Shown: piece after piece, positions 27,149-50,162 of the stretch
Layout of the letters: every line of letters begins with the position of its first letter
Position numbering within the stretch: position 1 is the stretch's first letter
Assembly (NCBI GenBank): GCA_038063415.1
Contig: JBBTVD010000006.1
Coordinates: 73,948 to 137,947, forward strand
Origin: Patescibacteria group bacterium
GTDB taxonomy: Bacteria; Patescibacteriota; Microgenomatia; Levybacterales; UBA12049
Direction of reading: 5' to 3'
Length of the DNA: 64,000 bases
Notes under the pieces: generated by a model
What the model saw: the letters and a program-made list of their open reading frames with translations, nothing else
The model's database searches: none
Told to the model about the DNA's origin: nothing
Made by a program: the position numbers and the translations under genes

Positions 27149-29530
27149 TTATACCTTGTATCTCTTCAATAATAAAGAATTAGTTACGACAGAAATAGAA
27201 CTGCTTGCCATAGCAATTGATGCAAAAATCGGATTCAACAAAATGCCAAAAAATGGATACAGCAGCCCCATCGCTACTGGAATTAAAATGATATTGTACC
27301 CAAAAGCCCAGAATAAATTGAGTCGTATCGTCCGCATTGTTTTTTTAGAAAGGGTGATTGCTTTGGCGACACTACGTAAGTCTTTATTGATAAGCGTTAT
27401 AGCAGCAGCTTCAATAGCAACATCAGTCCCTTTCCCCATGGCAATACCAATATCAGCTACGGCAAGTGCTGGCGCGTCATTGATGCCATCACCAACAAAA
27501 GCCACCAGCCCCTTGTCATTCCCGCGCAGGCGGGAATCTACTGTCATTAATTTTTTAACGATTTTCTCCTTTTCTTGTGGCAATACATCTGCATAGACCT
27601 GTGTAATCCCAACCTGTTTTGCAATTGCATCTGCCGTACGTTTATTGTCGCCTGTAACCATCGAGACCGCTATGCCCATCTGTTGTAATGCAGCAACACC
27701 AGCTTTTGCTGACTCTTTAACCGTATCAGCAACAGCAATCACACCGAGGATTCCTGGATCCCCACCTCCGCGGGAATGAAGAGAGGAGGCGAGCATCATG
27801 ACTGTCTTTCCTTCCGATTCGAGTCTCTGAATTTGTTGATCAACTGTCATTCTGGCTCGTCCAGAATCAGATCCTGGATGCGCTTCTCCTCCAGCTGGCG
27901 GAGCGTTTACCAGGATGACGTCAAGTGATATTTTCTCCATCTCCATCAATCGTCTATTCCCCAACAGTACTCGTTGTTTCTGAATTATTCCTGAGACACC
28001 CTTTCCTGCAATAGCTTCAAACCCCTCGACTTTTTCCAGAGAGATTTTCTCCTCCTCAGCTTTCTTCACAATCGCATCTGCCAATGCATGTTCTGACCCT
28101 TTTTCAAGAGATGCAGCAAGCCGTAGCATGTCATCCTGAACTTGTTTCAGGATCTTTTCTTTATGGATTCCCGCCTCCGCGGGAATGACAAAAGGGATAA
28201 TATCCGTCACCTCAGGCTTTCCATTCGTGAGAGTTCCCGTCTTATCAAAAACAACTGTTGTAATGTTATTTGCCAATTCCAGACTTTGCGCATCTTTGAT
28301 AAGAATCCCAAGCTCTGCACCTTTGCCAGTACCGACCATAATAGCTGTCGGTGTCGCAAGGCCCATCGCGCAAGGACAAGCAATGATAAGGACAGCAACC
28401 GTATTGAGCATGGCATAGAGGAAAGCAGGCTGCGGACCAAAAAGATACCAGATACCAAAGGTAGCAAATGCAAGCATAACCACGATGGGAACAAAATAAG
28501 AAGAAACGGTATCTGCCAGACGTTGAATTGGAGCCTTACTCCCCTGAGCCTCCTGAACAAGTTTAATAATTTGAGAAAGCACTGTCTCTGATCCTACTTT
28601 GGTTGCTGTATAGAGAAATGTTCCGTGTTTATTAAACGTCGCTCCGACAATCACATCACCTTTTTGTTTCTCAACAGGAATACTTTCTCCCGTAATCATT
28701 GATTCGTCAATCGAAGAGGTTCCTTCAAGAATCTCTCCATCAACGGGAATCTTCTCTCCTGGACGAACACGGAGTACATCCCCAACCTGTACCTGTTCAA
28801 TAGGGATATCAATCTCCTTACCATCTCGAAGTACCCTTGCTGTCTTTGCCTGTAATCCAATAAGCTTGGTAATCGCTTGAGAAGTTCCTGCTTTTGCCTT
28901 TGCCTCAATATATCTCCCAAGTAAAATAAGACCGATCACAATCGTCGCCACATCAAAATAGGGCATAATCTCAACACCTAATCCCATAAAAATCGTTGGG
29001 AAAAACGTAACAAAAGCAGAATACCCATAGGCAACGGTAGTACCCAATGCGACAAGGGTGTCCATATTGGATGTACGGTGTTTAAATGCGGAAAAAGCTG
29101 TTTGGTAAAATGCTGCTCCCGCCCAGAATTGTACGGGTGTTGCAAGAAGTAGCTGTAGCCAGAAATTTTGTAGAAATGCTGGAGCCGTCGTCATAAGTCC
29201 AGGGAAGCTCCCCCAAAGAATGAGACCCCCCAACACCAAACTCACAATAACTTTCGTTCGCAGCATGGCTAGTTCATTTTGCTTTTCTTTTGCTTGCATA
29301 TCCTCACTTTTTTCGGCAATCTCCATTGTATAGCCTGTTTTGGCAATGGCATCCGCAAGCTGTTCTGGAGTACAGGTATCGGTATTATACGTAATGGTTG
29401 CTTTTTCCGTCGCCAGATTAACGACCGCATCAGTTACACCTGGTGTCTTTTTCAATGCACGCTCAGTCACACGAATACACGAGGCACAATGCAGACCTTT
29501 GATTGGAAATGATTTTTTAACGTTAGTCAT
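27149..29530 (-). CDS. copA: Copper-translocating P1B-type ATPase carrying four in-frame hairpin-repeat insertions
   Basis: N-terminal HMA domain (GLHCASC), CPC (ACPCAMGL), DKTGTLT and [12 protein letters not shown] motifs are all present. The ORF is intact at 793 aa. The extra peptides [59 protein letters not shown] and [11 protein letters not shown] coincide with the repeat elements. Confidence 0.9.
27515..27539. repeat. GTCAT-hairpin repeat unit inside copA (gtcattcccgc-gcag-gcgggaatc)
   Basis: 7-bp stem with a 4-nt loop. In the copA frame it is translated as [11 protein letters not shown]. Confidence 0.7.
27748..27785. repeat. Degenerate GTCAT-hairpin repeat unit inside copA (...ccacctccgcgggaatga)
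   Basis: It shares the ctccgcgggaatga arm with the unit at 28166-28189. In the copA frame it is translated as [12 protein letters not shown]. Confidence 0.5.
27846..27919. repeat. Composite GTCAT-hairpin element inside copA (gtcattctggctcgtccagaatc + gatcctgg...ccaggatgac)
   Basis: The first unit is identical to 38265-38287. In the copA frame the whole element is translated as [28 protein letters not shown]. Confidence 0.7.
28130..28189. repeat. Two GTCAT-hairpin units inside copA (gtcatcctgaacttgtttcaggatc ... gattcccgcctccgcgggaatgac)
   Basis: The first unit differs by 1 nt from 38226-38250. In the copA frame the pair is translated as [19 protein letters not shown]. Confidence 0.7.
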
Positions 29531-29928
29531 ATTTTATTAACCTTTCTCCAACTCTTTATGAGTTCTTTCCAGTAGAAAACCCCAATAATTTCAAAGACAA
29601 TATTTGTTATAACTCCAGGATAATAGTTAAACGTTCTTATGGCATCAATCAAATGATGTAACTCGAAAATAAAGAAAATACCATACAGTGTTAATACCCT
29701 CAATGTCCATTTCCCGCCTAAGACAAGAAGAGCGACTGGTCCAATCATCAGAATCCATATTATGTGTGAAGAATAATATGTTGCTTGAGGGATTGTCTGA
29801 AACAAACTACTAAAATATAACATGATCCAATCATTATGGTAAAAACCAGAAATAATTTCTTCAAAGAAATGTAAATACACAACAATTATTGAAAAAATGA
29901 AAAGCCTTTTTAATTTTTTTGATAGCAT
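29527..29928 (-). CDS. HXXEE-motif small membrane protein
   Basis: The ATG at 29928 is preferred over the TTG at 29940. The protein has four TM helices and the motif YLHFFEEI. It overlaps the copA start by 4 nt. Confidence 0.4.
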
Positions 29929-29929
29929 A

Positions 29930-30295
29930 TTATTGAACAATTATCTTTCCATGAAACATATTCATGCCACAGGAAATTTCGTATGTACCCTCTTTTTCAG
30001 GCGTAACAGAGATTGCTATTGTCTTATGCAGAGGGAGATATTTTCGTATCTTAAAATCTGGCAGAACTACTTCTTCGAGGCACGAGCTTGGATCACGACG
30101 GATGAAGTTGAGGGTTGTCTGTTTCCCTTTTGGAATTGAAATGACATTGGGAGAATAACCTCCTTCAACGACAATATCGACACGCTTTGTTTTTACGACT
30201 ATCGCTGCTTCTTCTTTTTTCATCAAGAAGAACCAATAGGTAAAGACAATACCAGTGATACTAAATAGAGCGACGAATAATGTATCAAGTTGCAT
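29930..30295 (-). CDS. Membrane-anchored cupredoxin-like (Cupredoxin_1-type) protein
   Basis: 121 aa with an N-terminal TM helix and a beta-sandwich ending in EISCGMNMFHGKIIVQ. It is paralogous to the C-terminal domain of 26100-27134. Confidence 0.5.
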   Translation of the reverse strand: MQLDTLFVALFSITGIVFTYWFFLMKKEEAAIVVKTKRVDIVVEGGYSPNVISIPKGKQTTLNFIRRDPSSCLEEVVLPDFKIRKYLPLHKTIAISVTPEKEGTYEISCGMNMFHGKIIVQ

Positions 30296-30332
30296 AAATA
30301 AGTTATCTCCTAAAATTAATTTTTAAAACATT

Positions 30333-30408
30333 GTCATTCCTGCGAAAGCAGGAATCCAGCTTGTTAAACTCTTTTTATTAGCTAGATCCCCGCATTCGCG
30401 AGGATGAC
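30333..30408. repeat. Two GTCAT-hairpin units in the DUF305/cupredoxin intergenic gap
   Basis: gtcattcctgcgaaagcaggaatc lies at 30333-30356 and gatccccgcattcgcgaggatgac at 30386-30408. Confidence 0.65.
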
Positions 30409-30426
30409 AAAAATACATAACAAGTG

Positions 30427-31023
30427 TTACCAGCTCAGGAGCCAGTCACGCATCTGATTAATCTCAGTCGTCTGTGCTGCGATAATATCATCTGCGAGCT
30501 TACTCATTTCTGGTCTCTCTGTCCCGCTTTTGAGCATATTTGCCATCATCACTGCCATCTGATGATGTGGGATCATCTCCTCGACAAAAACTTTGTCAAA
30601 ATCCTCCGCTTCTTCGAGACGATGAAAATCTGTTTCATCACCCATCATACCCATATGCATTGCGGGCGCGCCCATCATACCGTGGCCAGACATCACTTCT
30701 TGCCCTTGCGGGACATCTTTACCAAACCAGTCATTATACCACTGCTTCATTTGGGTAATCTCGTTACTTTGTGAATCAATGATATTTTGAGCAAGCTGCT
30801 TAACCTCTTCTCGTTGTGCCTTTTGCAACGCAAGCTTTGCCATCGTGATTGCATCTTCGTGGTGTGGAATCATTTGTTCGATAAAATGTGCATCAATCGT
30901 ATCTGAACGAGCCATCGTAGCTTGATTTCCGTAACCAATACCCATCATCTGCATCATCCCCAGCCAAACAAGCCCACCACCAGTCAAGAGTCCGATTAAG
31001 CCATACTTTATTTCTTTTTTCAT
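30427..31023 (-). CDS. DUF305 family protein (periplasmic, copper-related) with a Met/His-rich segment
   Basis: The ATG at 31023 (MKKEIKYGLIGLL, signal/TM) is preferred over the overlapping longer ORF, and is preceded by a GGGGGTGAG RBS. Two MIPHH repeats (FIEQMIPHHEDAITMA, FVEEMIPHHQMAVMMA) are present, together with the Met-rich stretch MSGHGMMGAPAMHMGMMG. Confidence 0.6.
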   Translation of the reverse strand: MKKEIKYGLIGLLTGGGLVWLGMMQMMGIGYGNQATMARSDTIDAHFIEQMIPHHEDAITMAKLALQKAQREEVKQLAQNIIDSQSNEITQMKQWYNDWFGKDVPQGQEVMSGHGMMGAPAMHMGMMGDETDFHRLEEAEDFDKVFVEEMIPHHQMAVMMANMLKSGTERPEMSKLADDIIAAQTTEINQMRDWLLSW

Positions 31024-31027
31024 ATTC

Positions 31028-31300
31028 TCACCCCCTTTTCTTAAAAACCTGCATAATTTCCGTAATCGATTCATCAGCTTTTCCTTTTGTAATCGATTCA
31101 GCGACACACCCTTTGAGATGGTTTTCAAGAAGGACATTCCCTGTTTCCTTGAGTCCACTTTCAACTGCTTGCATTTGATGGAGAACATCGATACAGTATG
31201 CATCAGCTTCAACCATAGAGATCACTTTATCTAAATGTCCCCGGGCAATTTTGAGTCGATGGAGTATCCTCTCTTGTGTATTTTTTGGTCTATATGTCAT
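31028..31300 (-). CDS. csoR: CsoR/RcnR family metal-sensing transcriptional repressor
   Basis: 90 aa with the motifs RLKIARGHLDKVISMVE, YCIDVLHQ and HLKGCV matching the Cys-His-Cys Cu(I) ligand pattern of CsoR. Confidence 0.7.
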   Translation of the reverse strand: MTYRPKNTQERILHRLKIARGHLDKVISMVEADAYCIDVLHQMQAVESGLKETGNVLLENHLKGCVAESITKGKADESITEIMQVFKKRG

Positions 31301-31346
31301 ATCCCCCCTATAGGGATATTATGGAACTAGTCACAGAAGTTGTCAA
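31299..31346 (-). promoter_or_regulatory. csoR-operon promoter (TTGACA-N17-CATAAT) with a candidate CsoR operator palindrome ATATCCC-N7-GGGATAT immediately downstream
   Basis: On the minus strand, the -35 element lies at 31341-31346 and the -10 at 31318-31323. A perfect 7-bp inverted repeat lies at 31299-31319 and spans the RBS and start codon of csoR. CsoR operators are GC-cored pseudo-palindromes. Confidence 0.45.
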
Positions 31347-31358
31347 CTGGGGAAATTG

Positions 31359-32213
31359 TTACCGGATAAAATAAGTAACGATATCTAAAAAAGCATCCTC
31401 ATCCACACTTTTTCCAATAAAATACTTCCCTTCACCTTTTGTCTTTGCTCGTGATTGCAACTCGGGGCTTATATTACCAACCGTCCCGACATACTGACAA
31501 TGTTGCATAAAATGCCAATCACCGAGCGTGTCTCCTATACCCAATGTCTCTGAAAAGTCTATGCCTAGATGCGTAAGAACATCAGCTACTGCTTGTCCTT
31601 TTGAGGCACCTTTCTTGGTGATAACAGCTGACTCAAAAGGAGACATCGCAGGATGACCGCTCCACATATAATTGATATCTTCTTTGAATTCTTCTAAGAC
31701 AGCTTCTATCTTTTTCTTATCCGTATCATTATCAAATAATGCCACTATCTTTATAAGATCAAAATCGATAACATGTTCGGAGAGAGAAGTAACAGCGATA
31801 TGCTCTTTCTGTAAAATGGCAACTCTTTTTTCTGTCAACAAATCTCGTTGATTACTTTGAATAAAATAGTCATCGATTCCGTAACATTCGAGATAGATAT
31901 TTTTTCTGACAAGTTGCTTAATTAGTTGTGTGGCAAGGTCCCTTGCTAAAAGATGTTTCTTGCTAAAATTATTATTTTTAGGATTAAAAATAACTGCTCC
32001 ACCGTCACTAATATGAGGATTAGAGAGTCCTGTTTTTTTTATAATTTCTTGGATTGAGAAGCCAAACTTGCCGGTACAAAGGATGACGAGCATCCCTTTT
32101 TTGTTTAGATCAGAAAGGCGCCGTAAGACTTTTTCATTGGGAATGGGGAAATTAATACCAAGCTTATCACCAACTAGTACACCATCAACATCAGTAACAA
32201 TTGCTTTGATCAT
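31359..32213 (-). CDS. HAD-IIB (Cof-type) phosphatase
   Basis: Motif I is VTDVDGVL. C-terminal GIGDTLGDWHFM is motif IV. Its start overlaps the stop of the upstream gene (ATGA). Confidence 0.7.
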   Translation of the reverse strand: MIKAIVTDVDGVLVGDKLGINFPIPNEKVLRRLSDLNKKGMLVILCTGKFGFSIQEIIKKTGLSNPHISDGGAVIFNPKNNNFSKKHLLARDLATQLIKQLVRKNIYLECYGIDDYFIQSNQRDLLTEKRVAILQKEHIAVTSLSEHVIDFDLIKIVALFDNDTDKKKIEAVLEEFKEDINYMWSGHPAMSPFESAVITKKGASKGQAVADVLTHLGIDFSETLGIGDTLGDWHFMQHCQYVGTVGNISPELQSRAKTKGEGKYFIGKSVDEDAFLDIVTYFIR

Positions 32214-34117
32214 ATATTTCGATAGACCTCTCTTCTTCTTTTGATATCCACAATTTCAAAGCTTCGTTGACCTGAGGTTGATTCTCCTTCTGTAAGTAAA
32301 ACTCTTACTCCTTTTGCCCCTATATTGATCCTATACGAATATCGCTTCCTTCCATCTGACCCTATCCCCAACATTTTTAGCCTTCCTACTCCTCGTTTAT
32401 TATACTCATTTATTCTTGTTATAACTTTTTCCTGATCACCAGCTGTTAGACCTTTCATAACTTCTCCCATTTCCGCCTGTTCTTTCAGGACAATTATGTT
32501 TCTTGCCTTTCCAGTTTCTAAACTTACCGTTTCTGCGACTACCGAAAGCGCATCTCCACTTTGCCTATGACGTCGTTTGGTACTTGCTACGAGAGTGGTA
32601 GTTCCCGAGTCAGGGGGTATTTTAGGTTGCGGTACTTGATTACCCTTGGGAGGCTCTACTTTTCTTACTACTGTTGCTTTCCTTCTTTCCCATTCGTCCT
32701 TCGTTGTTTTTTCTACCTCTTGCAAAGCTGCCATAACAACCCGTTTTGCTGCCGATGAAAATTGCTGCATTTTATCTGATTCAGGATCTTCGAGATAGTT
32801 CCATTCAAATTCTTGTCTTTTTGCATCCACTCCCAACCAAAGGCTTGTACCTTCATTTTCTGCCTCATACGTTATATCAACCACAAATTCCATTGGCTTA
32901 CCAGGACTAAAGGTAAGGGTTACTGATTGAGGAGGTACAAACTCTGTCCATGAGAGAGCATCAATGTCAATATCGTACACATCCTTATCTCTTGGCTTTT
33001 TTCCAATAATTTTTGCAACAGATACTCTGTAGTCATTAAATGAAGGTGTGTCAGCGATAGCATCCCCCTCCCTTTCTATAAATATCTCCTCTATCTCATC
33101 TGCCGTACGTAACTGGGTAAAAGCAGAGAGGATATCGACATATCCTTCTACCATTCCTGCAAATTTTCGATAAAAATCGCCATGCTCAGGGAGATCTCTT
33201 TGCTCCATGGCTTTTCTAAAAAGATCTTGTAAACCTTCTGCTCTATTGTTGCTAAAAAGGTGAATTAAAAAAGACTGTATTTCAGGGGATGCACCAAAAT
33301 ATTCTTGTATTTTTTCTTTTAGAGCAGTAAATTCTTTTGCGCTAGGATCGATAATAGTCATAGCAAGACCATCTCGGAATTCGTGTGTTTTCTCAAGAAG
33401 TGTTTCAGTTACTGGAGCTGTTAACGGGAATCTTCTTTTTATGTCTCTATATTCTGGCATATCTCTATTATTAGAAAGGTTTATAACTCCAGTCAAAATA
33501 TTTCCTGTTTGGCCAGCAGCCTCTAAGACGATATTTGGGAATTCGCGAGCCAATTCTGAGGGATTTTCTTCCAAGAGAGTACGTTGAAACTGTTCCCCCG
33601 GAAAAAGCTTTAAAGCCATAAAAAAACTGAGCTGAGCTGCCAAAGGAAGTTTGTTTCGTTTCGTCTGTTCTGCTATCTTTCGTAAAGAAACCCCATGCGA
33701 TGCTAAATCAACTGGTAAGATTGAGGAAAAAGCCTCTAATGCTGCAAGTTCACTTGCGTCTTTTCCTCTCCTTTGCAAAGCGGTAAAAAAACGAGAAAGA
33801 GAGTCTCCTATTTTAATCATTGCACCTGCCCTGTGTACGACTTGAGCTCCAAACATTGCATTGGTCACTTCTGCAGAGGTACTTGCATCTTTCTTTAGAC
33901 CAAGAAGCTCCTCTAACGAGGCTTTCCAACTCAGATATAGCTGATTTATTGCGGGCTCAGACAAATAGCTGCTAATACTGTTTGTCAGAGCTCTTTTTCT
34001 ATCCACCAGACTTTTGTCTTCCCACGATAGAGCCCTTTGATCGAAATTAACAGAATGTTCCTGCTTCTTTCTCATTAGAGTATCAGGAGTAACAAAAGCT
34101 GGACCTTCAGTTGTCAT
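32210..34117 (-). CDS. Large hypothetical cytoplasmic protein with a C-terminal RelE/ParE-fold-like domain
   Basis: 635 aa with no TM helix or signal peptide. The last ~90 aa (VITRINEY...RYSYRINIGAKGVRVLLTEGE...SFEIVDIKRRREVYRNI) match the yelRvgdyRiiY...vhRkdvY pattern of RelE/ParE toxins. It sits between secA (9-nt gap) and the HAD gene (overlap). Confidence 0.5.
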   Translation of the reverse strand: MTTEGPAFVTPDTLMRKKQEHSVNFDQRALSWEDKSLVDRKRALTNSISSYLSEPAINQLYLSWKASLEELLGLKKDASTSAEVTNAMFGAQVVHRAGAMIKIGDSLSRFFTALQRRGKDASELAALEAFSSILPVDLASHGVSLRKIAEQTKRNKLPLAAQLSFFMALKLFPGEQFQRTLLEENPSELAREFPNIVLEAAGQTGNILTGVINLSNNRDMPEYRDIKRRFPLTAPVTETLLEKTHEFRDGLAMTIIDPSAKEFTALKEKIQEYFGASPEIQSFLIHLFSNNRAEGLQDLFRKAMEQRDLPEHGDFYRKFAGMVEGYVDILSAFTQLRTADEIEEIFIEREGDAIADTPSFNDYRVSVAKIIGKKPRDKDVYDIDIDALSWTEFVPPQSVTLTFSPGKPMEFVVDITYEAENEGTSLWLGVDAKRQEFEWNYLEDPESDKMQQFSSAAKRVVMAALQEVEKTTKDEWERRKATVVRKVEPPKGNQVPQPKIPPDSGTTTLVASTKRRHRQSGDALSVVAETVSLETGKARNIIVLKEQAEMGEVMKGLTAGDQEKVITRINEYNKRGVGRLKMLGIGSDGRKRYSYRINIGAKGVRVLLTEGESTSGQRSFEIVDIKRRREVYRNI

Positions 34118-34126
34118 AGGGTACTT

Positions 34127-36913
34127 TTATTGTACTTCAGGATAGTGGCATTTCTTCCACTTCTTGCCACTCCCACACCAGCAGGGATCGTTGCGGTTAA
34201 GCTTTTTCTTCTTTTCGATTGGTGTACTTTTGGTTTCAGAAATTTCACCTTCTGGTCTGTTGGTTATGAGTTTTCGTTGCTTTGGTCTGGGAAGTGGCGC
34301 TTCCGTATGTGCAGGCCCTGAATGAGTTGATCCATCTGCATGCGTATGGGTTTCTGTCTCATGTACATGTCCCGAGGCACCATGGGGAGGATTGGCAGTT
34401 GGGGATTGTTGTACCTGCATTTTAAAGATTCGATGCACTACTTCATCGTCAATGGCAAACATCAACGATTCAAACATTCTAAACCCTTCGTTTTTATATT
34501 CAACGAGGGGATCACGCTGTGCATATCCTCGAAGTCCAATCCCCTGGCGAAGATTATCCATCGCGTCTAGATGACTCATCCACAGGTTATCAATAACAGA
34601 AAGTAACACAAACTTCTCGATCTGACGCATGAGCGGACTCCCTAATTGCTTTTCTTTTTGACCATAGACGTCATCAGCCAACTTCGTGAGGAATGTTGTT
34701 TTCTCCTCTACGCTATGCTGCTGTTCAAGCTGTTTTAAGAGTTGTTCTTGTGAGGCATCATCAAAAGGAATAACGGTCACAAACTCTCCAAGGATTCGCT
34801 TATTCGCATCTGCTTGCTCTTCAGACTGCTCCGCGATAGTCATCGTAACGAGAGATGAAAGAGCGCTTTGGATACGGTTCTGCACCTCTTCGGTAAGAGA
34901 ATCATCTTGTGCATGAGCCTTCTCAAGGATCTTATGACGAAGAGCATAAATGATCTCACGCTGCTTGTTCAGTACATCATCATATTGTACGAGGTGTTTT
35001 CTGGTATCAAAATGAAACCCTTCTACTTTTACCTGTGCATTTTCAATTGATCGAGAGACAAGTGGATGGGTAAGTGGCACATCCTCTGGCATATTAAACC
35101 GTGTCATCATGCCAGCAATTCGCTCGCCACCAAACAGTCGCATGATATCGTCATCAAGTGCTACAAAGAAACGTGATGCACCAGGGTCTCCTTGTCGACC
35201 AGATCGACCTCGTAACTGATTGTCGATACGACGAGACTCATGGCGCTCCGTACCAATCACATACAGTCCACCAAGCTCCAAAATCTCATCATGCTCTTTC
35301 TGCCATTTCTTATAGGCTGGACTACTCGTATGGGTAGTGCCATCTTCATTTTGCGGAGGCTCTCCACCCAAGATAATATCAACTCCACGACCTGCCATGT
35401 TGGTTGCAATGGTCACAGCACCCTTTTTGCCAGCCTGGGAAATAATCTCAGCCTCTCGTAAATGATTCTTTGCATTGAGAAGTTCGTGTTTGATACCTCG
35501 TCTCTTAAGTAATTCTGAAAGGATCTGGTTTTTATCAATAGAGGTAGTACCAACAAGTACTGGTTGCCCTGTTTTATGAGCATTGTCAATTTCGGTCACT
35601 ACTGCTGAAAATTTTGCTCTCCCCGTCTTATACACTGCATCAGCATGATCAGTACGACTTACATTGCGATGCGTTGGGATCACAACCACATCAAGTTTAT
35701 AAATTTTGCGGAATTCTTCAGCTTCGGTCACCGCAGTACCCGTCATACCAGAAAGCCGCTCATACATACGGAAATAGTTTTGTAGAGAGACGGTCGCGAG
35801 CGTCTTTGATTCCCGCTGTATTGGCACATTTTCTTTTGCTTCAATTGCCTGATGAATACCTTCTGAAAGCCGTCGACCTTCCATCAGACGCCCCGTAAAC
35901 TCGTCAACCAAGATTACTTGATTGTCTTTGACAATATATTCTTTCTCACGATGGAAGAGGGTTCGTGCTTTGAGCGCTGCTTCAATATGATAGACCGTAT
36001 CAAAATCCTTTTCATAGACATTGGCTACACCAAAAAGTTTTTCGATCTTACCAATGCCATGATCTGTCAGATGGGCTGTCCGCATTTTTTCATCAACCTT
36101 GTAGTCAATTTCTGAGGAAAGCTTCCCCACGAGCGTTGCATATTCATAATATTTGGCAGAAGGTGATTCATCAGGTGCAGAGATAATATGTGGCGTACGG
36201 GCTTCATCAATAAGCACAGAGTCTACTTCGTCAACAATAGCGAAGTAGTAGCCTCGTTGGCGGATATTTGCCAAGTCTTGCTCCATATTGTCCCGCAGAT
36301 AATCAAAGCCAAACTCTGAATTAATTCCATAGGTGACATCTGCTTGATAGGCTTCACGACGACTAATAGGCTTCAGATGGGTTAACCGTGCGTCAGAGGC
36401 CTTGTCATCGACATAGGTAGGATCGTAGAGGTACGATCGCTCACTAATCATTGAAGCAACTGATACTCCTAAAAAATGAAAGACTGGTCCCATCCAGCCG
36501 GCATCACGACGTGCAAGATAATCGTTCACCGTAACGAGATGCACACCTCTCCCCGTTAATCCATGCAAATAAAGCGCTGGTACGGCAGTAAGCGTTTTTC
36601 CTTCACCGGTTTTTTGCTCAGCAATTTTGCCCTGAAAGAGCGTAATCGCACCCATCAGCTGTGAATCAAAATGGCGAAGCCCAAGTGTTCTCCAGGCCGC
36701 CTCACGGGCAAGTGCAAAGGCTTCTGGAAGAATAAGATCAAGTGATTCACCTGAAGCAACACGCTCTTGGAGTTCTTTTGTTTTCTTAGGAAAATCTTTA
36801 TCTTTCAGTTTTTTAACAGATGCTTCAAGACCATTAATTCCAGATACAATGGTCTGGATGGACGTAATCTCGCGTTTGTTGGAATCGAAGAGTTTGTTAA
36901 TGAAGCTTAACAT
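34127..36913 (-). CDS. secA: Preprotein translocase ATPase SecA
   Basis: 928 aa with the DEAD-like motor, and it ends with the zinc-finger tail CWCGSGKKWKKCH. Confidence 0.95.
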   Translation of the reverse strand: MLSFINKLFDSNKREITSIQTIVSGINGLEASVKKLKDKDFPKKTKELQERVASGESLDLILPEAFALAREAAWRTLGLRHFDSQLMGAITLFQGKIAEQKTGEGKTLTAVPALYLHGLTGRGVHLVTVNDYLARRDAGWMGPVFHFLGVSVASMISERSYLYDPTYVDDKASDARLTHLKPISRREAYQADVTYGINSEFGFDYLRDNMEQDLANIRQRGYYFAIVDEVDSVLIDEARTPHIISAPDESPSAKYYEYATLVGKLSSEIDYKVDEKMRTAHLTDHGIGKIEKLFGVANVYEKDFDTVYHIEAALKARTLFHREKEYIVKDNQVILVDEFTGRLMEGRRLSEGIHQAIEAKENVPIQRESKTLATVSLQNYFRMYERLSGMTGTAVTEAEEFRKIYKLDVVVIPTHRNVSRTDHADAVYKTGRAKFSAVVTEIDNAHKTGQPVLVGTTSIDKNQILSELLKRRGIKHELLNAKNHLREAEIISQAGKKGAVTIATNMAGRGVDIILGGEPPQNEDGTTHTSSPAYKKWQKEHDEILELGGLYVIGTERHESRRIDNQLRGRSGRQGDPGASRFFVALDDDIMRLFGGERIAGMMTRFNMPEDVPLTHPLVSRSIENAQVKVEGFHFDTRKHLVQYDDVLNKQREIIYALRHKILEKAHAQDDSLTEEVQNRIQSALSSLVTMTIAEQSEEQADANKRILGEFVTVIPFDDASQEQLLKQLEQQHSVEEKTTFLTKLADDVYGQKEKQLGSPLMRQIEKFVLLSVIDNLWMSHLDAMDNLRQGIGLRGYAQRDPLVEYKNEGFRMFESLMFAIDDEVVHRIFKMQVQQSPTANPPHGASGHVHETETHTHADGSTHSGPAHTEAPLPRPKQRKLITNRPEGEISETKSTPIEKKKKLNRNDPCWCGSGKKWKKCHYPEVQ

Positions 36914-36968
36914 AAGACTATTATACTACCACATTTTAGCCTGGAAAAGAAGCACTACTCTTAGGTAG

Positions 36969-38219
36969 TTACGATTTCTTTAGTATATCTTTCCCCATAT
37001 ACTTGCGCAATACTTCTGGGACAACAACACTCCCGTCTTCTTGTTGATAATTCTCAAGGATGGCAACTAAGGGTCGGGTAGAAAAGGCTGTTCCATTCAA
37101 AACATTGAGATACTTTTTTTCATTACCGTCCTGATACTTCATATTGAGACGGCGTGATTGGAAATCCGTTACGGTCGACGCAGAAGTCATCTCACGATAC
37201 TTTTGCTGTGTCGGAATCCATGCTTCGATATCATATTTTCTTGCTGCATTAAAACCAAGATCGCCCGTACATACGTTAATCACTTGATAAGGAATCCCAA
37301 GCTGTTGCATAAACCGTTCTTCAATCGAAAGCAGAAACTCATGCTCACGATCATCATCGCCTTCCGCTACAAAAGACACCATCTCTGTCTTATCAAATTG
37401 ATGCACACGAAAAATGCCCCGCGTATCTTTGCCATAACTTCCTGCTTCACGTCGAAACGCAGTTGAAAAGCCAACATATCTTCGTGGCAAATCTTCTTTT
37501 CTCAATACATCATTCATGTGATACGGAACAATTGATTGCTCAGCAGTGCCTACGAGATATAAGTTTTCATCTTCAATTGTGTAGATCTCCTCTTTATCTC
37601 CCATCTGAGTATAGCCAAGCCCTTCCATGATTTCTTTTTTGATCATGACTGGTGGAACAATTGGAATAAAACCTTCTTTGATGAGGGTATCAAAAGCATA
37701 TTGACGAAGCGCAAATTCAAGCAGTGCACCGTCATTTTTCAGATAATAGAACCGTGCACCACTTACCGTTGCAGCTTGTTTGACGTCAATAATACCCAGT
37801 GACTCACCAAGAACCAGATGATCTTTTGGCTCAAAAGAGAAGCTTGTTGGATCGCCAACGACTTTTATTACTTTATTTCCCGTCTCATCTTTGCCGATTA
37901 TCACGTCAGGTTTTGCTGGATTGGGAAGCCTAAGAAGCAGGTTACGGAGAGTTTGTTCTAAATCTTTTAGTTTGGCTTCTTCTTTCTCTAGTTTTTGTTT
38001 ACGAGATTGGGCATGCTCTTTATTAAATTGATCTGGATTTTTTTTAATCTGTTCATTCAGAGCATTTTTTTCTTCACGAAGACTCTGAACCTTTTGAGCA
38101 GTTTCCCGATGAAGGCTATCTACCTGCAAAAGATCATTTATATTAATTTCAACGCCTTTATTTTTAGCAGATTCTTCTACAGCTTTCGGATTTAGACGAA
38201 TATATTTTATATCTAGCAT
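36969..38219 (-). CDS. serS: Seryl-tRNA synthetase
   Basis: 416 aa with an N-terminal coiled-coil arm and class II aaRS motifs (FRRE, GLGYTQ...). Confidence 0.93.
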   Translation of the reverse strand: MLDIKYIRLNPKAVEESAKNKGVEININDLLQVDSLHRETAQKVQSLREEKNALNEQIKKNPDQFNKEHAQSRKQKLEKEEAKLKDLEQTLRNLLLRLPNPAKPDVIIGKDETGNKVIKVVGDPTSFSFEPKDHLVLGESLGIIDVKQAATVSGARFYYLKNDGALLEFALRQYAFDTLIKEGFIPIVPPVMIKKEIMEGLGYTQMGDKEEIYTIEDENLYLVGTAEQSIVPYHMNDVLRKEDLPRRYVGFSTAFRREAGSYGKDTRGIFRVHQFDKTEMVSFVAEGDDDREHEFLLSIEERFMQQLGIPYQVINVCTGDLGFNAARKYDIEAWIPTQQKYREMTSASTVTDFQSRRLNMKYQDGNEKKYLNVLNGTAFSTRPLVAILENYQQEDGSVVVPEVLRKYMGKDILKKS

Positions 38220-38225
38220 AATAAT

Positions 38226-38322
38226 GTCATCCTGAACTCGTTTCAGGATCTTTTTTTAGAATTCGTCATTCTGGCTCGTCCAGAATCTTATATTTATCAT
38301 GCTGAAATAAATTCAGCATGAC
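38226..38322. repeat. Three GTCAT-hairpin units between serS start and rpsT end
   Basis: The three units are gtcatcctgaactcgtttcaggatc, gtcattctggctcgtccagaatc and atcatgctgaaataaattcagcatgac. Confidence 0.7.
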
Positions 38323-38377
38323 AAAGATAATAAGCTGATTATATCGTGTTTGGAAAAGGTGGTCAATGAGGAAGGAG

Positions 38378-38683
38378 TTACTTTTTCTTAGCCTTGGTTG
38401 CTTTAGTAACTTTTTTACTCTTTGCAGGAGCGGCTTTCTTCTCAGTAGGATTACTTAGCTGTTTGGTAAGCGAAGATTTTATTCTTGCTGCTTTATTCTC
38501 ATGGATGATATTCTGTTGTGCAGCCTTATCAATACCACTAAATGCTTTACTGACAGTTTCTGCTGAAGTTTCGGTACGAGCAGCTTTCACCAATTTCTTA
38601 AAGGCTTCTTTTAGTTTTTTGTTTTGCAAGGTTCGTCCTTTATCTTGACGAAGCTTTTTCTTTGCGTGTTTTAACAATGGCAT
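38378..38683 (-). CDS. rpsT: 30S ribosomal protein S20
   Basis: 101 aa, very basic and helical, with the KKRLRQ and KAARTE signatures of bS20. Confidence 0.8.
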   Translation of the reverse strand: MPLLKHAKKKLRQDKGRTLQNKKLKEAFKKLVKAARTETSAETVSKAFSGIDKAAQQNIIHENKAARIKSSLTKQLSNPTEKKAAPAKSKKVTKATKAKKK

Positions 38684-38740
38684 TTCTGCATTTTAGCATG
38701 ATATACTTAAAAATACAATAATTACCCTACGGTAACTACT

Positions 38741-40411
38741 ATGGCAAAAGATTTTCTCTGGAAAAAGAGCCTTGATCTCATTACCAAACGTCAAACCAAT
38801 ATCCTTTCGGCGGCGTTTGTTATCATGGCAACCGTCATTCTCTCCCAAGTTTTAGGATTGATTCGACAGCGACTTCTGGTAGGCATTTTTGGCGCCTCAG
38901 ATACGCTTGGCATCTATTTTTATGCCTCACAGCTACCAGACACCCTCTTTCAGCTTACTATAGCCGCAGCGCTTACCTCAGCCTTTATCCCTGTATTCTC
39001 TGACTTTTTGACCAGAGGCAAAGAAAAACAAGCCAATATTATGGCTTCAACACTCCTTATGCTTAGCTTTTTTGCTTTTTTTGTCCTCGCCATTCTCCTT
39101 GCCATTTTTACTCCCTTTTTTCTTGGTATCTTCAACCTAGGAAATAATTTTTCTCCAGAGCAAATGACCCTTATGGCAAATCTTACCCGTATTATTATTT
39201 TTGGACAGATATTTTTTATCCTGGGAACATTTTTTACCGCCTTACTCCAATCGTATAACCACTTCTTCGTCCCAGGCTTTGCCGCAGCGCTCTATAACTT
39301 AGGTATTATTATTGGCGTTATTGTTTTTGCGCCTCTCTTTGGCATTTACTCGGCAACTATTGGGGTGATACTTGGAGGCATTATTTTCGTTCTCGTACAA
39401 GTCCCGCTTACTCGCAAGGTCGGTTTCAGATTCACTCCAGTACTTTCAGAAATAAAATCTGAAGGGATAAAAAAAATCGGTACCCTTATGTGGCCAAGGA
39501 CCCTTGCTATTGTCGTCTTCCAACTAGGTACTGTTGCCGTTGGCTCACTGATTTCTTTTCTCCCCGACCCAGGAAGGATGAATGTTATTTTTGATTTTGC
39601 AAAGACACTTGCTTTTGCACCGGTCGCATTGTTTGGTCAAACGATTGCACAAGCAGCCTTCCCAGTGCTCTCTCGTGAGAAAGAAAGGATTGCAGATTTT
39701 AAAGTAACCTTTATCACCAGTTTTAATCAAATGTTGTACCTGGTACTACCTGTCTCAGTGCTTATCTTGATCCTTCGTATCCCGCTTGTCAGACTTGTCT
39801 TTGGAGCAAGTAAATTTGACTGGCCAGCAACAGTACTAACAGGACAAACACTCGCATTCTTTAGTCTTTCTATTTTTGCTCAAGCACTGATTACGCTGAT
39901 TCTTCGAGCCTTTTATGCGCTTCATGACACAAAAATACCGCTTATTATTAACGCTCTCTCAACGGCAATACTGGTCATTATTGCTTATCTCTTTATAGTG
40001 GTATATCACTTTGGTGTACAGAGTCTCGCGATTGCCTTTACTATCTCAAGCATCTTTCAGCTTATTATTTTGTTTATTCTGCTTGATAAACGGGTGGGTG
40101 GGTTTAACAAACTACAACTGCTGCTTCCCTGGACCAAATTTTTTATCTCCTCTGTTTTTACCGCTTTTGCTTTGTATATCCCCATCAAACTGCTTGATCA
40201 ACTTGTTTTTGATACGACCAGAACGATTAATTTAATCATCCTTGCGGGTATTTCAAGTCTTGCAGGGTTGTCTCTCTATCTTTTCTTTACCTGGTTCTTT
40301 GATGTTAAGGAGGCACAAAACTATCTCCAGGTTATTAAAAAGGTAGGTAATTGGCGGGCAATTCTTGCCAAGTCGCAAGAAGTGCTTGAGGGTGGGAAGA
40401 TTAATCAGTAA
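38741..40411 (+). CDS. murJ: Lipid II flippase MurJ (MviN)
   Basis: 556 aa with 14 TM helices and the N-terminal motif LSQVLGLIRQRLLVGIFGAS...YFYASQLPD characteristic of MurJ. Confidence 0.8.
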   Translation: MAKDFLWKKSLDLITKRQTNILSAAFVIMATVILSQVLGLIRQRLLVGIFGASDTLGIYFYASQLPDTLFQLTIAAALTSAFIPVFSDFLTRGKEKQANIMASTLLMLSFFAFFVLAILLAIFTPFFLGIFNLGNNFSPEQMTLMANLTRIIIFGQIFFILGTFFTALLQSYNHFFVPGFAAALYNLGIIIGVIVFAPLFGIYSATIGVILGGIIFVLVQVPLTRKVGFRFTPVLSEIKSEGIKKIGTLMWPRTLAIVVFQLGTVAVGSLISFLPDPGRMNVIFDFAKTLAFAPVALFGQTIAQAAFPVLSREKERIADFKVTFITSFNQMLYLVLPVSVLILILRIPLVRLVFGASKFDWPATVLTGQTLAFFSLSIFAQALITLILRAFYALHDTKIPLIINALSTAILVIIAYLFIVVYHFGVQSLAIAFTISSIFQLIILFILLDKRVGGFNKLQLLLPWTKFFISSVFTAFALYIPIKLLDQLVFDTTRTINLIILAGISSLAGLSLYLFFTWFFDVKEAQNYLQVIKKVGNWRAILAKSQEVLEGGKINQ

Positions 40412-40449
40412 ACCTCCAGTTTCTCTCTCTTATCTGATAAGATAATCTA

Positions 40450-41613
40450 ATGAAGGAGATAAGAAAGATATATGTGGTACACTTTCTTGCTGGATTATCA
40501 ACAGCATCTTCTGTTACTTTTACCCTTTACTTTCTTTCTCATGGCATAGACCAATTTCAGATTGCACAATTGTTTGGTTTTTTTATGCTTGCCCTTGCTC
40601 TATTAGAAATTCCAACGGGTGGGGTCGCTGATACATTTGGACACAAAACCTCGGTGACAGTAGGTCTCTTTTTCCAATCAGTAAGTTTTCTTTTGTTCTT
40701 TCTTTTTCCCAGTTACTGGGGAATATTGAGTGGGATGCTTATGAGTGCGTTAGGATTAGCACTGCAGTCGGGGGCAACTTCATCGCTTATCTACGAACTC
40801 CTTAAAAAAGAACACATCCATCAAGAGTTTAAAAAAATCTATGGCCGAGCAAACGGTTACTTTCTTATTGCAGGGTTCGTTGCTGCACCATTAGGTTCGC
40901 TGGTCTATGCGAGCTATCCTAAAGTTCCTTACTTTTTTTCTTTCTTCGTGCTTCTCCTCTCTGCAATTGTCCTATATACAGTTAAATGGGATTTTATAAG
41001 AAAATCAGTAAACTTTGAAAGCTATAAAAATACGCTTATTAGTGGCGTAATGTTAACGCTCAAACATAAACTTCTTATAGCAATTGTTATTATTGGAATC
41101 GCTCTCACGGTAAATAGATTAGTCTTCAATCAAAATATTAGTCAGCCTTATTTGGTTGGAATTGGGGTTGATGTCGCATATATTGGCTTTATTGCGGCTG
41201 GTATTTCTGCCATCCTTGCTTTTATTTCGATATACTCATATAAGATTGCTGAAAAAATTGGCACGAATGCGTCACTTCTCTTAATTATCATTTTGCCAAG
41301 TATTGCCGTATTTATCCTCGGACTCATCAATAACATGCTGGCATTAGCTATAATACTATTCCTCGTTGTAGGTCATGCCTTTAGAGATCCAGTGGTTACG
41401 CATATAGTCCATGAAGAATTAGATTCAGAGAAGAGAGGCACTATGGCTTCAACAATGAGTTTTCTTACAGGTATTGTCGGAAGTGTCATGCTTCCCTTCT
41501 TCGGCGCAGGAATTGATACATTTGGTATGCATACGACACTTTTTCTTCTGGGAATATTTACTTTTGTTATAGGAGGGATTGGATTTATAGTATTTACCTA
41601 TAAAAAAGCATGA
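40450..41613 (+). CDS. MFS transporter
   Basis: 387 aa with 12 TM helices in a 6+6 arrangement and a GGVADTFGHK-like loop after TM2. Confidence 0.6.
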   Translation: MKEIRKIYVVHFLAGLSTASSVTFTLYFLSHGIDQFQIAQLFGFFMLALALLEIPTGGVADTFGHKTSVTVGLFFQSVSFLLFFLFPSYWGILSGMLMSALGLALQSGATSSLIYELLKKEHIHQEFKKIYGRANGYFLIAGFVAAPLGSLVYASYPKVPYFFSFFVLLLSAIVLYTVKWDFIRKSVNFESYKNTLISGVMLTLKHKLLIAIVIIGIALTVNRLVFNQNISQPYLVGIGVDVAYIGFIAAGISAILAFISIYSYKIAEKIGTNASLLLIIILPSIAVFILGLINNMLALAIILFLVVGHAFRDPVVTHIVHEELDSEKRGTMASTMSFLTGIVGSVMLPFFGAGIDTFGMHTTLFLLGIFTFVIGGIGFIVFTYKKA

Positions 41614-41640
41614 GGAAGTAGTGGAATCACTAGCTTTTTA

Positions 41641-43592
<1,952 letters not shown>

Positions 43593-43762
43593 ATAAATGT
43601 TCCTGAGGTTTCTATCAGTTGGACAGTTAGTATGCTTATTTATACAACAAACGCTTTCTATTTGCAATATCCTATAGAAATGTGCGTCGTAGAATAAACA
43701 GGTATACTATACTATAGTAACAAAGCATACTCAGCAAAGAGTAGTCATATTTTGGTTAGTCC

Positions 43763-43797
43763 TTGACAGCATTGTTTTTCTTCTATACGATAAAAAT
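43763..43797 (+). promoter_or_regulatory. Possible promoter upstream of the PKD surface protein gene (TTGACA at 43763)
   Basis: A ttgaca hexamer is followed about 17 nt later by an AT-rich tatacgat/ataaaaat region, 35-70 nt before the ATG at 43831. The -10 element is not canonical. Confidence 0.25.
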
Positions 43798-43830
43798 ACG
43801 GGTTTTTCTAGAAGCTCTCTCTATATATTT

Positions 43831-45039
43831 ATGCGTTTTAGTGGTAAAAAAATTTTTCTTTTTGGATTTTTGGCTGTACTGCTTGTAGGTATTCCTGTAA
43901 CAGTCTTCTTGGTACAGCAGCAACAGCAAGATATACGAAGCCGAGCAGAAAAATCTACCACAATCTCTTTTACTCCTGAATCATCAGAAGCTGCGCCTCT
44001 GGAAAAACAAGTTGGGGATCCAGTTGCACTTGATATCATGGTTAACCCAGGAAATAATCTTGTTTCCTTTGTCAAACTTGAAATTCAATATGATCCAGAA
44101 AAACTTGCGACCACTGGAGCAAACACCTTTCAACCAAATACAGTAGCCTTTCCAACTGTCCTTGAAGGACCCATTTACTCGCCGGGAAAGATAGCTGTCA
44201 CACTTTCTGTTGGACCAGATCCGACAAAAGCAATCCAGCAAGTTGTTAAAGCTGCAACCGTTAACCTTGAGGCTATAGCAAACACCGATTCAGGAGCACC
44301 TACGCTTGTTACCTATGGTACCACTACCCAAGTACTTTCTATTGGGGCAAGTGATGAAGCAAGTGAAAATGTCCTTGCGAGCACTGTCCCTGCTGCCATT
44401 TCTATCGGCGGTGAGACAGCCGAACCGACAGAAACAATCCCGACAGGATCACCTACTCCATCACCTATCTCGACAGTTCAACCAACCACATCGCCGGGGG
44501 GTACACAACCAACAGTTGAACCGACACAGACTACTGGAGGGACTGGAGGAGGAGATCCAAATCAATCACCCTTCTGTAGTAGTCTGACAGTCGATCGCGA
44601 AACCAATGGAACAGCACCATTCTCGATAACCTTTACTGCCAATGGCAATGATAGTGATGGCACAATTACGCAAGTATCATTTAATTTTGGTGATGGAGAA
44701 GTTGCCAATATAACAACAGCAGGAGGAATTGGAACTAATCAAGTAAACGTTCAGACAGCACACACCTACAATAATCCAGGAACCTATCAAGCATCTGGAG
44801 TCCTCACCGATAGTAATAATGGTTCTAGTGGTCTCAATGAATGTGTTCAAACGATCGTTGTGACAGAAGATACTGGTACAGGTGGGACAGGAGGTGGAAA
44901 TACAACAACGACACAATCAACGTCTGCCAGCGCAACGCCATCTATCCCTCCAACAGGGACAACAGAAATGGCTCTTGGTATCGGAGCAATTGCCCTGGCT
45001 CTGATAGTCGGTGGAGGAATCCTCTTCTTCCTATTATAA
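43831..45039 (+). CDS. Secreted surface protein with a PKD-like domain, Thr/Pro/Gly-rich linkers and a C-terminal IPPTG + TM sorting-like tail
   Basis: N-terminal signal/anchor, PKD-like block (FSITFTANGNDSDGTITQVSFNFGDGE...HTYNNPGTYQASGVLTD), and C-terminus SIPPTGTTEMALGIGAIALALIVGGGILFFLL. Confidence 0.6.
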   Translation: MRFSGKKIFLFGFLAVLLVGIPVTVFLVQQQQQDIRSRAEKSTTISFTPESSEAAPLEKQVGDPVALDIMVNPGNNLVSFVKLEIQYDPEKLATTGANTFQPNTVAFPTVLEGPIYSPGKIAVTLSVGPDPTKAIQQVVKAATVNLEAIANTDSGAPTLVTYGTTTQVLSIGASDEASENVLASTVPAAISIGGETAEPTETIPTGSPTPSPISTVQPTTSPGGTQPTVEPTQTTGGTGGGDPNQSPFCSSLTVDRETNGTAPFSITFTANGNDSDGTITQVSFNFGDGEVANITTAGGIGTNQVNVQTAHTYNNPGTYQASGVLTDSNNGSSGLNECVQTIVVTEDTGTGGTGGGNTTTTQSTSASATPSIPPTGTTEMALGIGAIALALIVGGGILFFLL

Positions 45040-45061
45040 ATTACTCATGTTATACATTTTC

Positions 45062-45130
45062 GTCATTCTGGCCGAGTCCAGAATCCGTTTCGCTTAAGAT
45101 CCTGGATGCGCTGCTGCTTATCAGGATGAC
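45062..45130. repeat. Two GTCAT-hairpin units between convergent genes (surface protein / DinB-like)
   Basis: The two units are gtcattctggccgagtccagaatc (a loop variant of the 27846/38265 unit) and gatcctggatgcgctgctgcttatcaggatgac. Confidence 0.65.
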
Positions 45131-49206: not shown

Positions 49207-49267
49207 AAAAGGGCTTTACCACCTAAAATTGGAGAATGCGCGGTTGGCTTCTGCTTGACGAACCCTC

Positions 49268-50109: not shown

Positions 50110-50162
50110 AAGGTTATTATACACTATACGCTAATAGAAAAGTATGCAAATTGGAGTTTAGT

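Follow-up and report, generated by a model that had tools for sequence, protein, structure and literature searches.

Hairpin units and their arrangement

This work deals with a family of short hairpin repeats in a 64-kb stretch of DNA from a Patescibacteria group bacterium (64,000 nt, positions 73,948 to 137,947 of contig JBBTVD010000006.1). The whole stretch is called the window below, and its numbering is used unless a locus of another genome (labelled L with a number) is named. Thirteen hairpin units are present there at seven loci. Four loci lie within a single gene on the minus strand, copA (27149-29530), coding for a heavy-metal P-type (P1B) ATPase of 793 aa (NCBIfam TIGR01525 and CopA). 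The others are located in a gap of the cop operon, between rpsT and serS, and between two convergent genes. The original prediction had described them as repeats similar to repetitive extragenic palindromes (REP) or miniature inverted-repeat transposable elements (MITE). The sequences it described are present at all seven loci, and they are dispersed DNA-level palindromes with conserved termini, 13 units against about 0.4 expected. Their location was misjudged for 7 of the 13 units, those at the four loci inside the copA frame.

Aligned on GTCAT, a unit is 23-25 nt long. It starts with GTC, followed by a stem of 7-8 bp beginning with AT[T/C]C, a loop of 4-6 nt, the closing strand of the stem ending in G[A/G]AT, and a C; the single-unit consensus is GTCAT[T/C]C...G[A/G]ATC. 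Loops are enlarged in some units, which brings their length to as much as 50 nt. The flanks are asymmetric, with an unpaired (C/T)GTC immediately 5' of the stem and an unpaired C immediately 3' of it. Inner stem bases vary freely as covarying pairs. GTC and the 3' C are each found in 12 of the 13 units, and so is the 5' motif (C/T)GTCAT. The outline GTCATyC...GrATGAC, earlier proposed for one hairpin, mixes two inverted units, the "...GrATGAC" end being that of the second unit; the pattern GTCATYC-N(10-30)-GRATGAC gives no match in the window.

Scanning for perfect hairpins anchored at GTCAT (stem of at least 7, loop of 3-8) has found 11 in the window, whereas 200 dinucleotide-preserving shuffles averaged 0.4 and never exceeded 3. 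All stem cells are paired (63 of 63) and four of the seven stem positions are changed on both sides, in agreement with the compensatory changes noted earlier. The covariation score of the stems was reached by none of 500 shuffles, and slid registers pair in just 18-56% of cells. A covariance model (CM) was built from nine units and run unfiltered on the 64 kb. It finds ten strong copies of the training type (E 5e-6 to 3e-4, obtained on its own training sequences) and additional matches at 45098-45130 (E 0.09) and 38298-38322 (E 0.6), with nothing comparable at any other place in the 64 kb. The total of 13 is made up of the ten strong copies, these two matches and a long-loop unit at 27870-27919 found by hairpin scans. 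As single-stranded DNA (ssDNA), the units fold in the way that had been anticipated, with predicted energies of -5 to -9 kcal/mol (z -3 to -6), leaving GTC and the C unpaired. Tandem-repeat and Rfam searches of the window returned nothing.

The units form four inverted doublets with GTCAT ends pointing outward (27846-27919, 28130-28189, 30333-30408 and 45062-45130), a triple cluster (38226-38322) and single units at 27515 and 27757. The doublets are 60-76 bp long, with 1-28 nt between the two units. Their arms often have different stems, so ssDNA folding does not give the long hairpin of REP doublets forming hairpins (REPIN). Units 27846-27868 and 38265-38287 are identical (23/23), while 28130-28154 and 38226-38250 differ in one loop base, both as originally stated. 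Identity or near-identity of copA units to intergenic units of the window indicates recent exchange or spread within the genome. A flipped cruciform loop had been suspected at 45062, but CCGAGT versus CTCGT is simply a different loop.

Outside copA, the 76 bp doublet (units 30333-30356 on the plus and 30385-30408 on the minus strand) occupies the gap that separates the DUF305/CopM gene of the cop operon from its cupredoxin gene. The three-unit cluster fills the space from the rpsT stop to the serS start and consists of 38226-38250 (+, CTGAA stem), 38265-38287 (+, CTGG stem) and 38297-38322 (-). The last one is a divergent GTCATGCTGAA... variant without the 3' C and with a weak CM score (E 0.64). 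A strong promoter-like site, TTGACC-17-TATAAT (11/12), is located at 38338-38366 (-), a short distance downstream of rpsT; should serS be transcribed from it, the serS 5' leader would include the three hairpins. The 69 bp doublet combines a short CTGG unit (45062-45085, +), a 12-nt spacer and a medium-loop unit (45098-45130, -), and lies between the convergent genes 43831-45039 (+) and 45182-45985 (-). Its type is shared with 5062-5123 of L200, a metagenome-assembled genome (MAG) of Gammaproteobacteria, and with copA of L005.

One rival reading takes the hairpins for ordinary rho-independent terminators or other RNA-level regulatory structures. Three units are caught by a terminator-like scan on the plus strand (28133, 38229 and 38268), and the CTGAA unit has a T-rich tail. 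However, these three are antisense to or upstream of the surrounding minus-strand genes, most units lack a T tract, seven lie within a reading frame, none matches Rfam, and a given unit can be found in both orientations and in more than one frame. The family is not reducible to U-tract terminators, and an RNA-level explanation is highly improbable.

Ssn-related motifs and GIY-YIG genes in other genomes

The Neisseria Transformation Sequence (NTS) of Chenal et al. (2025; Nat Commun, PMC11893778) is CGTCATTCCCGCGMAVGCGGGAATCYRG, a 28 nt sequence which encompasses dRS3, ATTCCC-N8-GGGAAT. The same authors define a broader class, Ssn-related motifs (SRMs), inverted repeats of 20-50 nt with a predicted hairpin form as ssDNA. 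SsnA, a single-domain GIY-YIG protein (cd10448) of 94 aa, is described there as binding and cutting the motif solely as ssDNA and on one strand only. Binding is governed by the stem and the 3' C, the C after the palindrome being the most important base. Cutting occurs a few bases upstream of the hairpin, and the three bases before the palindrome matter most. The ssn gene typically has a motif on either side, and 81% of SRM-rich genomes have an Ssn homologue.

Three of the 13 units are within 2-3 mismatches of the NTS consensus, while none is expected; 30333-30356 has three. This is more than the single mismatch allowed for an NTS. An exact dRS3 sequence is present at 27518-27537 and 28167-28186 (none expected), and the other units have different stems. 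The positions that do not vary in our family (GTC, stem and 3' C) are those whose function proved critical in Chenal et al. (2025). Only two of the 13 units (27515-27538 and 30385-30408) fit the SRM search motif given there, which makes it unsuitable for a census of the window; the CTGG and CTGAA units were assigned to SRMs by their architecture and ssn association in other genomes, not by this motif.

The exact NTS-type 24-mer GTCATTCCCGCGNAGGCGGGAATC was found in at least 120 viral or prophage contigs of IMG/VR (L008-L127), with up to 13 copies per contig (L022); a few of them also carry Neisseria uptake sequences. The GC content of these contigs ranges from 39 to 72%, which confirms spread across phyla. 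Abundance in viral DNA is also what would be seen if the main role of the hairpins were to offer an IS110/IS1111-type or phage recombinase sites of attachment or targeting, in the way dRS3 does for Neisseria filamentous prophages, their spread being a by-product. dRS3 is indeed cited as a phage recombinase target in Chenal et al. (2025). However, no integrase, IS110 element or prophage is located next to any of the seven loci, and such a role leaves unexplained why doublets mirror the ends of ssn elements (see below). We consider it unlikely as the main function of the family. Use as a recombinase target is compatible with the Ssn-based explanation rather than an alternative to it, and is unsupported here.

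Species-representative genomes were scanned for the CTGG-type sequence GTCATTCTGGCNNGTCCAGAATC; CTGG and CTGAA units were checked apart from the SRM motif. At least 117 stretches contain GTCATTCTGGCNNGTCCAGAATC, and they come from many lineages of Patescibacteria as well as from Nitrospirota/Thermodesulfovibrionales, Nitrospinota, gammaproteobacterial MAGs and others. Open reading frames (ORFs) of the fetched loci were searched with one Ssn-like protein (phmmer) and then with a profile (hmmsearch). GIY-YIG ORFs of about 95 aa were found, three of them from Patescibacteria matching Pfam PF01541 with E 2e-10 to 8e-13. Such ORFs are directly bracketed by inverted units, GTCAT ends outward, in L202, L169, L198, L190, L224 and L245. 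L202 (Levyibacteriota), for example, has a unit at 4126-4167 (+), an ssn-like gene and a unit at 4458-4480 (-). The Ssn frame of this locus (4173-4490) runs through the right-hand hairpin and ends with ...DSGQARMT and the stop codon; the same is seen in L169, L198 and L245. L190 carries two different ssn genes, one beside an exact window unit, GTCATTCTGGCTCGTCCAGAATC, and the other beside a CTGAA unit one base off that of the window, suggesting that each stem class has its own nuclease. Ssn-like genes are abundant in Patescibacteria and often found on very short contigs, as is the case with repeated elements. In L247 (3365-5324), an Ssn-like GIY-YIG gene is located next to aminoacyl-tRNA synthetase ORFs that appear to be split (tRNA-synt_2b into 210 + 174 aa, ArgRS into 89 + 473 aa).

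The partner gene bears on the assignment to REP elements, which would be mobilised by a REP-associated tyrosine transposase (RAYT, an IS200/IS605-type Y1 transposase) whose gene would be located in another part of the genome. Short hairpins with an oriented conserved 5' motif, inverted doublets, the lack of target-site duplications and the location of intergenic copies at gene ends all fit it. The conserved motif next to a REP hairpin is reportedly GT[A/G]G, whereas the units have (C/T)GTC-AT. The gene recurrently bracketed in related loci codes for a GIY-YIG protein, and the surroundings of the units in the at least 117 genome loci contain no recurrent transposase family. Unbiased clustering of ORFs near units gave the GIY-YIG family as the largest cluster (five loci) and no transposase. 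The window genes include no Y1 transposase; the earlier statement that no RAYT is present holds and extends to any other transposase in the window and just beyond. With 7 of the 13 copies intragenic as well, mobilisation by a RAYT is very unlikely.

The ssn elements are 338-381 bp long and have a common layout: a left end GTCATYCTGG...CCAGRATC, the ssn gene and a right end GATTCTGGAC(A/G)AGCCAGAATGAC. Doublets of 62-89 bp from the window, from the copA genes of L005 and L006 and from a gammaproteobacterial MAG have the same two ends only 1-22 nt apart, with the terminal inverted repeats GTCATYCTGG...CCAGRATGAC. On the sequence evidence, the simplest reading is that doublets would be internal-deletion (MITE-like) derivatives of ssn elements. 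No target-site duplication was found around eight doublets or six ssn elements, which argues against a DDE-type mechanism and agrees with single-strand processing. Of the initial label "REP/MITE-like", the REP-like form and the inverted doublets stand. Filing under REP/RAYT does not, given the 5' motif and the GIY-YIG partner gene, and neither does a classical DDE MITE, given the missing target-site duplication.

Copies in frame within copA

The CopA reading frame is whole, and alignment to A. fulgidus CopA shows that the CPC, DKTGT, TGDN and GDGINDAP motifs are intact. The four copA loci with their seven units (54% of the family) add 53 aa in cytoplasmic loops. In an alignment to solved CopA structures the four extra segments coincide exactly with the hairpin positions. 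The identical CopA protein (accession MEK7570960.1) appears in two contig records, of NCBI and of the European Nucleotide Archive (ENA), and the ENA contigs originate from Hainich groundwater. Its closest homologues belong to Patescibacteria (Levy-, Daviesbacteria). The most common orthologue length is 740 aa, and none of the four segments is present in orthologues of this size. When the codons of three orthologous loci were aligned, the 740-aa gene (L007) had clean in-frame gaps, and the 791- and 843-aa copA genes (L005, L006) had other hairpin units of like architecture. The concentration of four out of seven insertion loci in 3.7% of the window has a binomial P of about 6e-5.

The single NTS-type unit GTCATTCCCGCGCAGGCGGGAATC (27515-27538, +) is read on the minus strand as the peptide VDSRLRGND, about aa 664-672 of CopA, in the P-domain loop before GDGINDAP. 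It has two mismatches in 28 positions relative to the Neisseria NTS consensus, contains an exact dRS3 and fits the published SRM search motif. Its CM score is E 5e-6, it folds as ssDNA with -8.9 kcal/mol (z -5.1), and it is absent from orthologues. The unit at 27757-27780 (-), TTCATTCCCGCGGAGGTGGGGATC, is degenerate: it starts with TTCAT, has G-T pairs and gives the peptide HSRGGGD (CopA aa about 584-591), part of an extra segment at about aa 582-595. Its CM score (E 3e-4) is that of a training sequence, and it is 84% identical over 32 nt to 28164-28195. The adjacent sequence 27746-27756 (CCAGGAATC) may be the 3' half of a second unit.

The 74 bp doublet 27846-27919 (CopA aa 538-562) consists of a short CTGG unit (27846-27868, +), a 1-nt spacer and a long-loop CTGG unit (27870-27919, -). 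It has the architecture and the right end of the L005/L006 copA doublets and of ssn elements. The 18 extra bases of the long loop are made up of a nested palindrome, CTCCGCCAGCTGGAGGAG (27886-27903). A similar sequence, CTCCGCCAGCTGGCGG, is located at another copA site in L005 (about 11390-11420), so this may be a second small palindromic element. The 60 bp doublet 28130-28189 (CopA aa 448-467) is positioned just after DKTGT and combines a CTGAA unit (28130-28154, +), an 11-nt spacer and an NTS-type unit (28166-28189, -). Its ssDNA folds into two separate hairpins with -16.6 kcal/mol (z -5.6).

Insertions were surveyed in the 120 closest CopA orthologues, with core positions taken from the 740-aa alignment. 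The main hot spot, core 448-451, where the 28130-28189 doublet resides, has insertions in 29 of these best 120 orthologues. It is followed by core 545 (12 of the 120, the site of the 27757-27780 unit), core 620-622 (11), core 524 (4) and core 236-238 (3). Inserts at core 448-451 are of many kinds, VILSKRS.SKDL..IL, VIARS..TKQS and VIPAKAGIQ among others. This one loop has accepted at least 11 different inserted peptides among the best 120 orthologues, about six of them recognisably hairpin-derived. Orthologues P0017 and P0040 have the CTGAA unit of the window there in the opposite orientation, read as VILNLFQD instead of ILKQVQDD. Such variety of inserts and the presence of both orientations point to repeated independent events, or replacements, at one loop. 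The core 524 doublet common to four orthologues is probably one older insertion.

In-frame survivors should be easy to obtain since most frames of the units are open (50 of 72, and five of six for the NTS and short CTGG types). In-frame carriage is not peculiar to copA either: in other genomes, 15 of 126 copies of the CTGG unit (L128-L244) are embedded deep in ORFs of 150 aa or more, most of them from Patescibacteria but one a 921-aa Thermodesulfovibrionales ORF. The peptide DSGQARMT is encoded by 9 of these 15 ORF-embedded copies. The frame that produces it, the most frequent one for the right-hand unit inside host genes, is also the frame in which the Ssn-like proteins end.

Recurrence of such peptides and the in-frame state of the inserts could mean that selection acts on the copA segments as protein features, in the form of conserved loop peptides, their palindromy being incidental. 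However, identical nucleotide units are present in intergenic DNA (38265, 45062), units are read in different frames and orientations among orthologues, as in the case of ILKQVQDD and VILNLFQD, and most orthologues have no inserts. Local model confidence also falls at each insert: the AlphaFold model of CopA, built from a 15-sequence alignment, is poor overall (mean predicted local distance difference test, pLDDT, 61; predicted template modelling score 0.45), and only its local dips were used. They amount to pLDDT 59, 40-41, 60 and 57 in N and P domains otherwise at about 80-88, the lowest (40-41) being at the insert of the 27846-27919 doublet. The dips would fit inserts modelled as surface loops. 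There is little chance that these segments were selected as protein features. No literature was found on the encoded peptides (IPAKAGI, DSGQARMT and others), and nothing relevant on REP in Patescibacteria.

In L007, the genome with the 740-aa copA, the whole cop cluster (csoR, DUF305, cupredoxin, copA, dsbD and HMA genes) adjoins a large serine recombinase gene (6978-8528). This context suggests that an integrative element carries the cop cluster between genomes. The cop cluster of the window shows no sign of foreign origin in its base composition.

Proposed mechanism and comparison with known systems

Considering the hairpins, the nuclease genes and the copA copies as one problem, we find it likely that the repeats are SRMs, of the same class as NTS and dRS3, that the doublets are their ssn-less MITE-like derivatives, and that the copA copies are in-frame landings. 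The hairpins would be bound as ssDNA and cut a few bases upstream by a small GIY-YIG Ssn nuclease. Doublets and solo units would spread in trans, using Ssn encoded elsewhere, and seven units would have landed at four copA sites. Copies in copA may persist there due to insert lengths that are multiples of three, unit frames mostly without a stop, and positions in surface loops of the cytoplasmic N and P domains. Action of Ssn on these copies, the route of their spread and any effect on ssDNA uptake or recombination are what we infer for this genome.

Several observations weigh against this explanation. Only two of the 13 units fit the published SRM motif, which excludes the CTGG and CTGAA classes. 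A GIY-YIG regular expression and a hidden Markov model of 13 Ssn-like ORFs detected no ssn gene in the window or in about 4 kb beyond its right end, and among the best 120 matches of two Ssn queries none comes from the 380,378-bp contig of this MAG. Absence of ssn from the genome would not be unprecedented, since the share of SRM-rich genomes with an Ssn homologue in Chenal et al. (2025) is 81%. The margin in the ORF clustering is thin, five loci compared to four for three other ORF clusters. Units of L005 and L006 are confined to copA, with none in 20 kb of flanks, so some copA copies may have arrived with the gene and not by insertion in this genome. Finally, no Ssn is known to move DNA; Chenal et al. 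(2025) remark only that the SRM-ssn-SRM arrangement resembles an insertion sequence. Separately, one close Ssn homologue comes from the same aquifer but from a different well, on contigs of about 950 bp, which proves nothing about this genome.

The family, correctly seen in the original prediction but filed there under the wrong system, is probably of the SRM/Ssn kind. It shares with NTS, dRS3 and SRMs the oriented hairpin (C)GTCAT, stem, loop, stem, C, the occurrence in many copies and clusters and, in related genomes, the placement of units on both sides of a single GIY-YIG gene of about 95 aa (SRM-ssn-SRM). Unlike the published cases, the host is a MAG of Patescibacteria (candidate phyla radiation, CPR), a group not mentioned in the main text of Chenal et al. 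(2025), and most window units, those with CTGG and CTGAA stems, do not fit the search motif. More than half of the window units are in-gene and in frame, compared to 2% reported there for N. meningitidis. Gene-less inverted doublets, not mentioned in the passages drawn on here, occur in the window while an ssn gene does not. The distinguishing features are the heavy in-frame load of copA, the recurrence of hot spots across orthologues, stem classes outside the published motif and the gene-less doublets.

The copA copies resemble, in behaviour only, Rickettsia palindromic elements (RPE), palindromic repeats found in frame in unrelated housekeeping genes (Ogata et al. 2000, as summarised in PMC10969869). 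Both add peptide segments at permissive surface positions and keep host motifs. RPEs are about 100-150 bp long with a conserved peptide of their own, whereas the window elements are 24-76 bp long, have several stem classes and also serve as ends of a nuclease gene.

REP, bacterial interspersed mosaic elements and REPINs with RAYT of Enterobacteria and Pseudomonas are alike in their short imperfect hairpins, oriented 5' motif, frequent inverted pairs and lack of target duplication; they are also reportedly handled as ssDNA by a domesticated nuclease whose gene lies between them. They differ in the motif (GT[A/G]G versus GTCA), in the nuclease (HUH Y1 versus GIY-YIG) and in being extragenic, which 7 of the 13 window units are not. 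As in MITEs, the terminal inverted repeats of doublets are identical to the ends of a longer gene-carrying unit, the gene itself missing from the doublets. Unlike MITEs, they have no target-site duplication, and the parent unit has no DDE transposase gene and is no proven transposon.

We can only tentatively go further and speculate that in CPR bacteria gene-less inverted pairs of the Ssn type are mobile mini-elements, inserting and replacing each other in frame at hot-spot loops such as those of CopA; on balance we lean against it. If true, this would be RPE-like innovation of protein loops driven by a GIY-YIG single-strand nuclease. It would also provide the first comparative handle on SRM spread, with no target duplication and with existing hairpins as preferred landing sites.

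Knowledge of the Ssn/SRM system dates only from 2025 and draws mainly on RefSeq genomes of Pseudomonadati. The window extends the hairpin class to a Patescibacteria genome, with stem classes missed by the published search motif. Filled and empty copA sites across orthologues constitute a natural series for insertion specificity. VIPA.AGI, DSG[QR]ARMT, HSR..GN and similar peptides in predicted CPR proteins should be taken for repeat-derived loops, not domains.

Some similar sequences of the window do not belong to the family. GTCATTCCTGGGAAAACAGG (17776-17800) encodes the conserved VIPGKTG motif of a GT4 glycosyltransferase. A weak CM match (E 0.24) without the 3' C at 51254-51274 falls at the 3' end of an rpoC-like ORF, and 3710 and 35103 are chance long-loop pairings. 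The palindrome ATATCCCCCCTATAGGGATAT (31298-31318) is not a member either, its GTCAT containing the start codon of a CsoR-like repressor gene (31028-31300, -). It is located at the start of this gene, overlaps a promoter-like site, TTGACA-17-CATAAT (31346-31318, -), and resembles a CsoR operator controlling the cop operon.

A 46-nt direct repeat (96% identical; 49215-49260 and 50162-50207) brackets an AbiEii toxin gene (49268-49924) beside rpsG (50163-50636). This region has the appearance of a toxin-antitoxin cassette whose insertion duplicated the rpsG 3' end.

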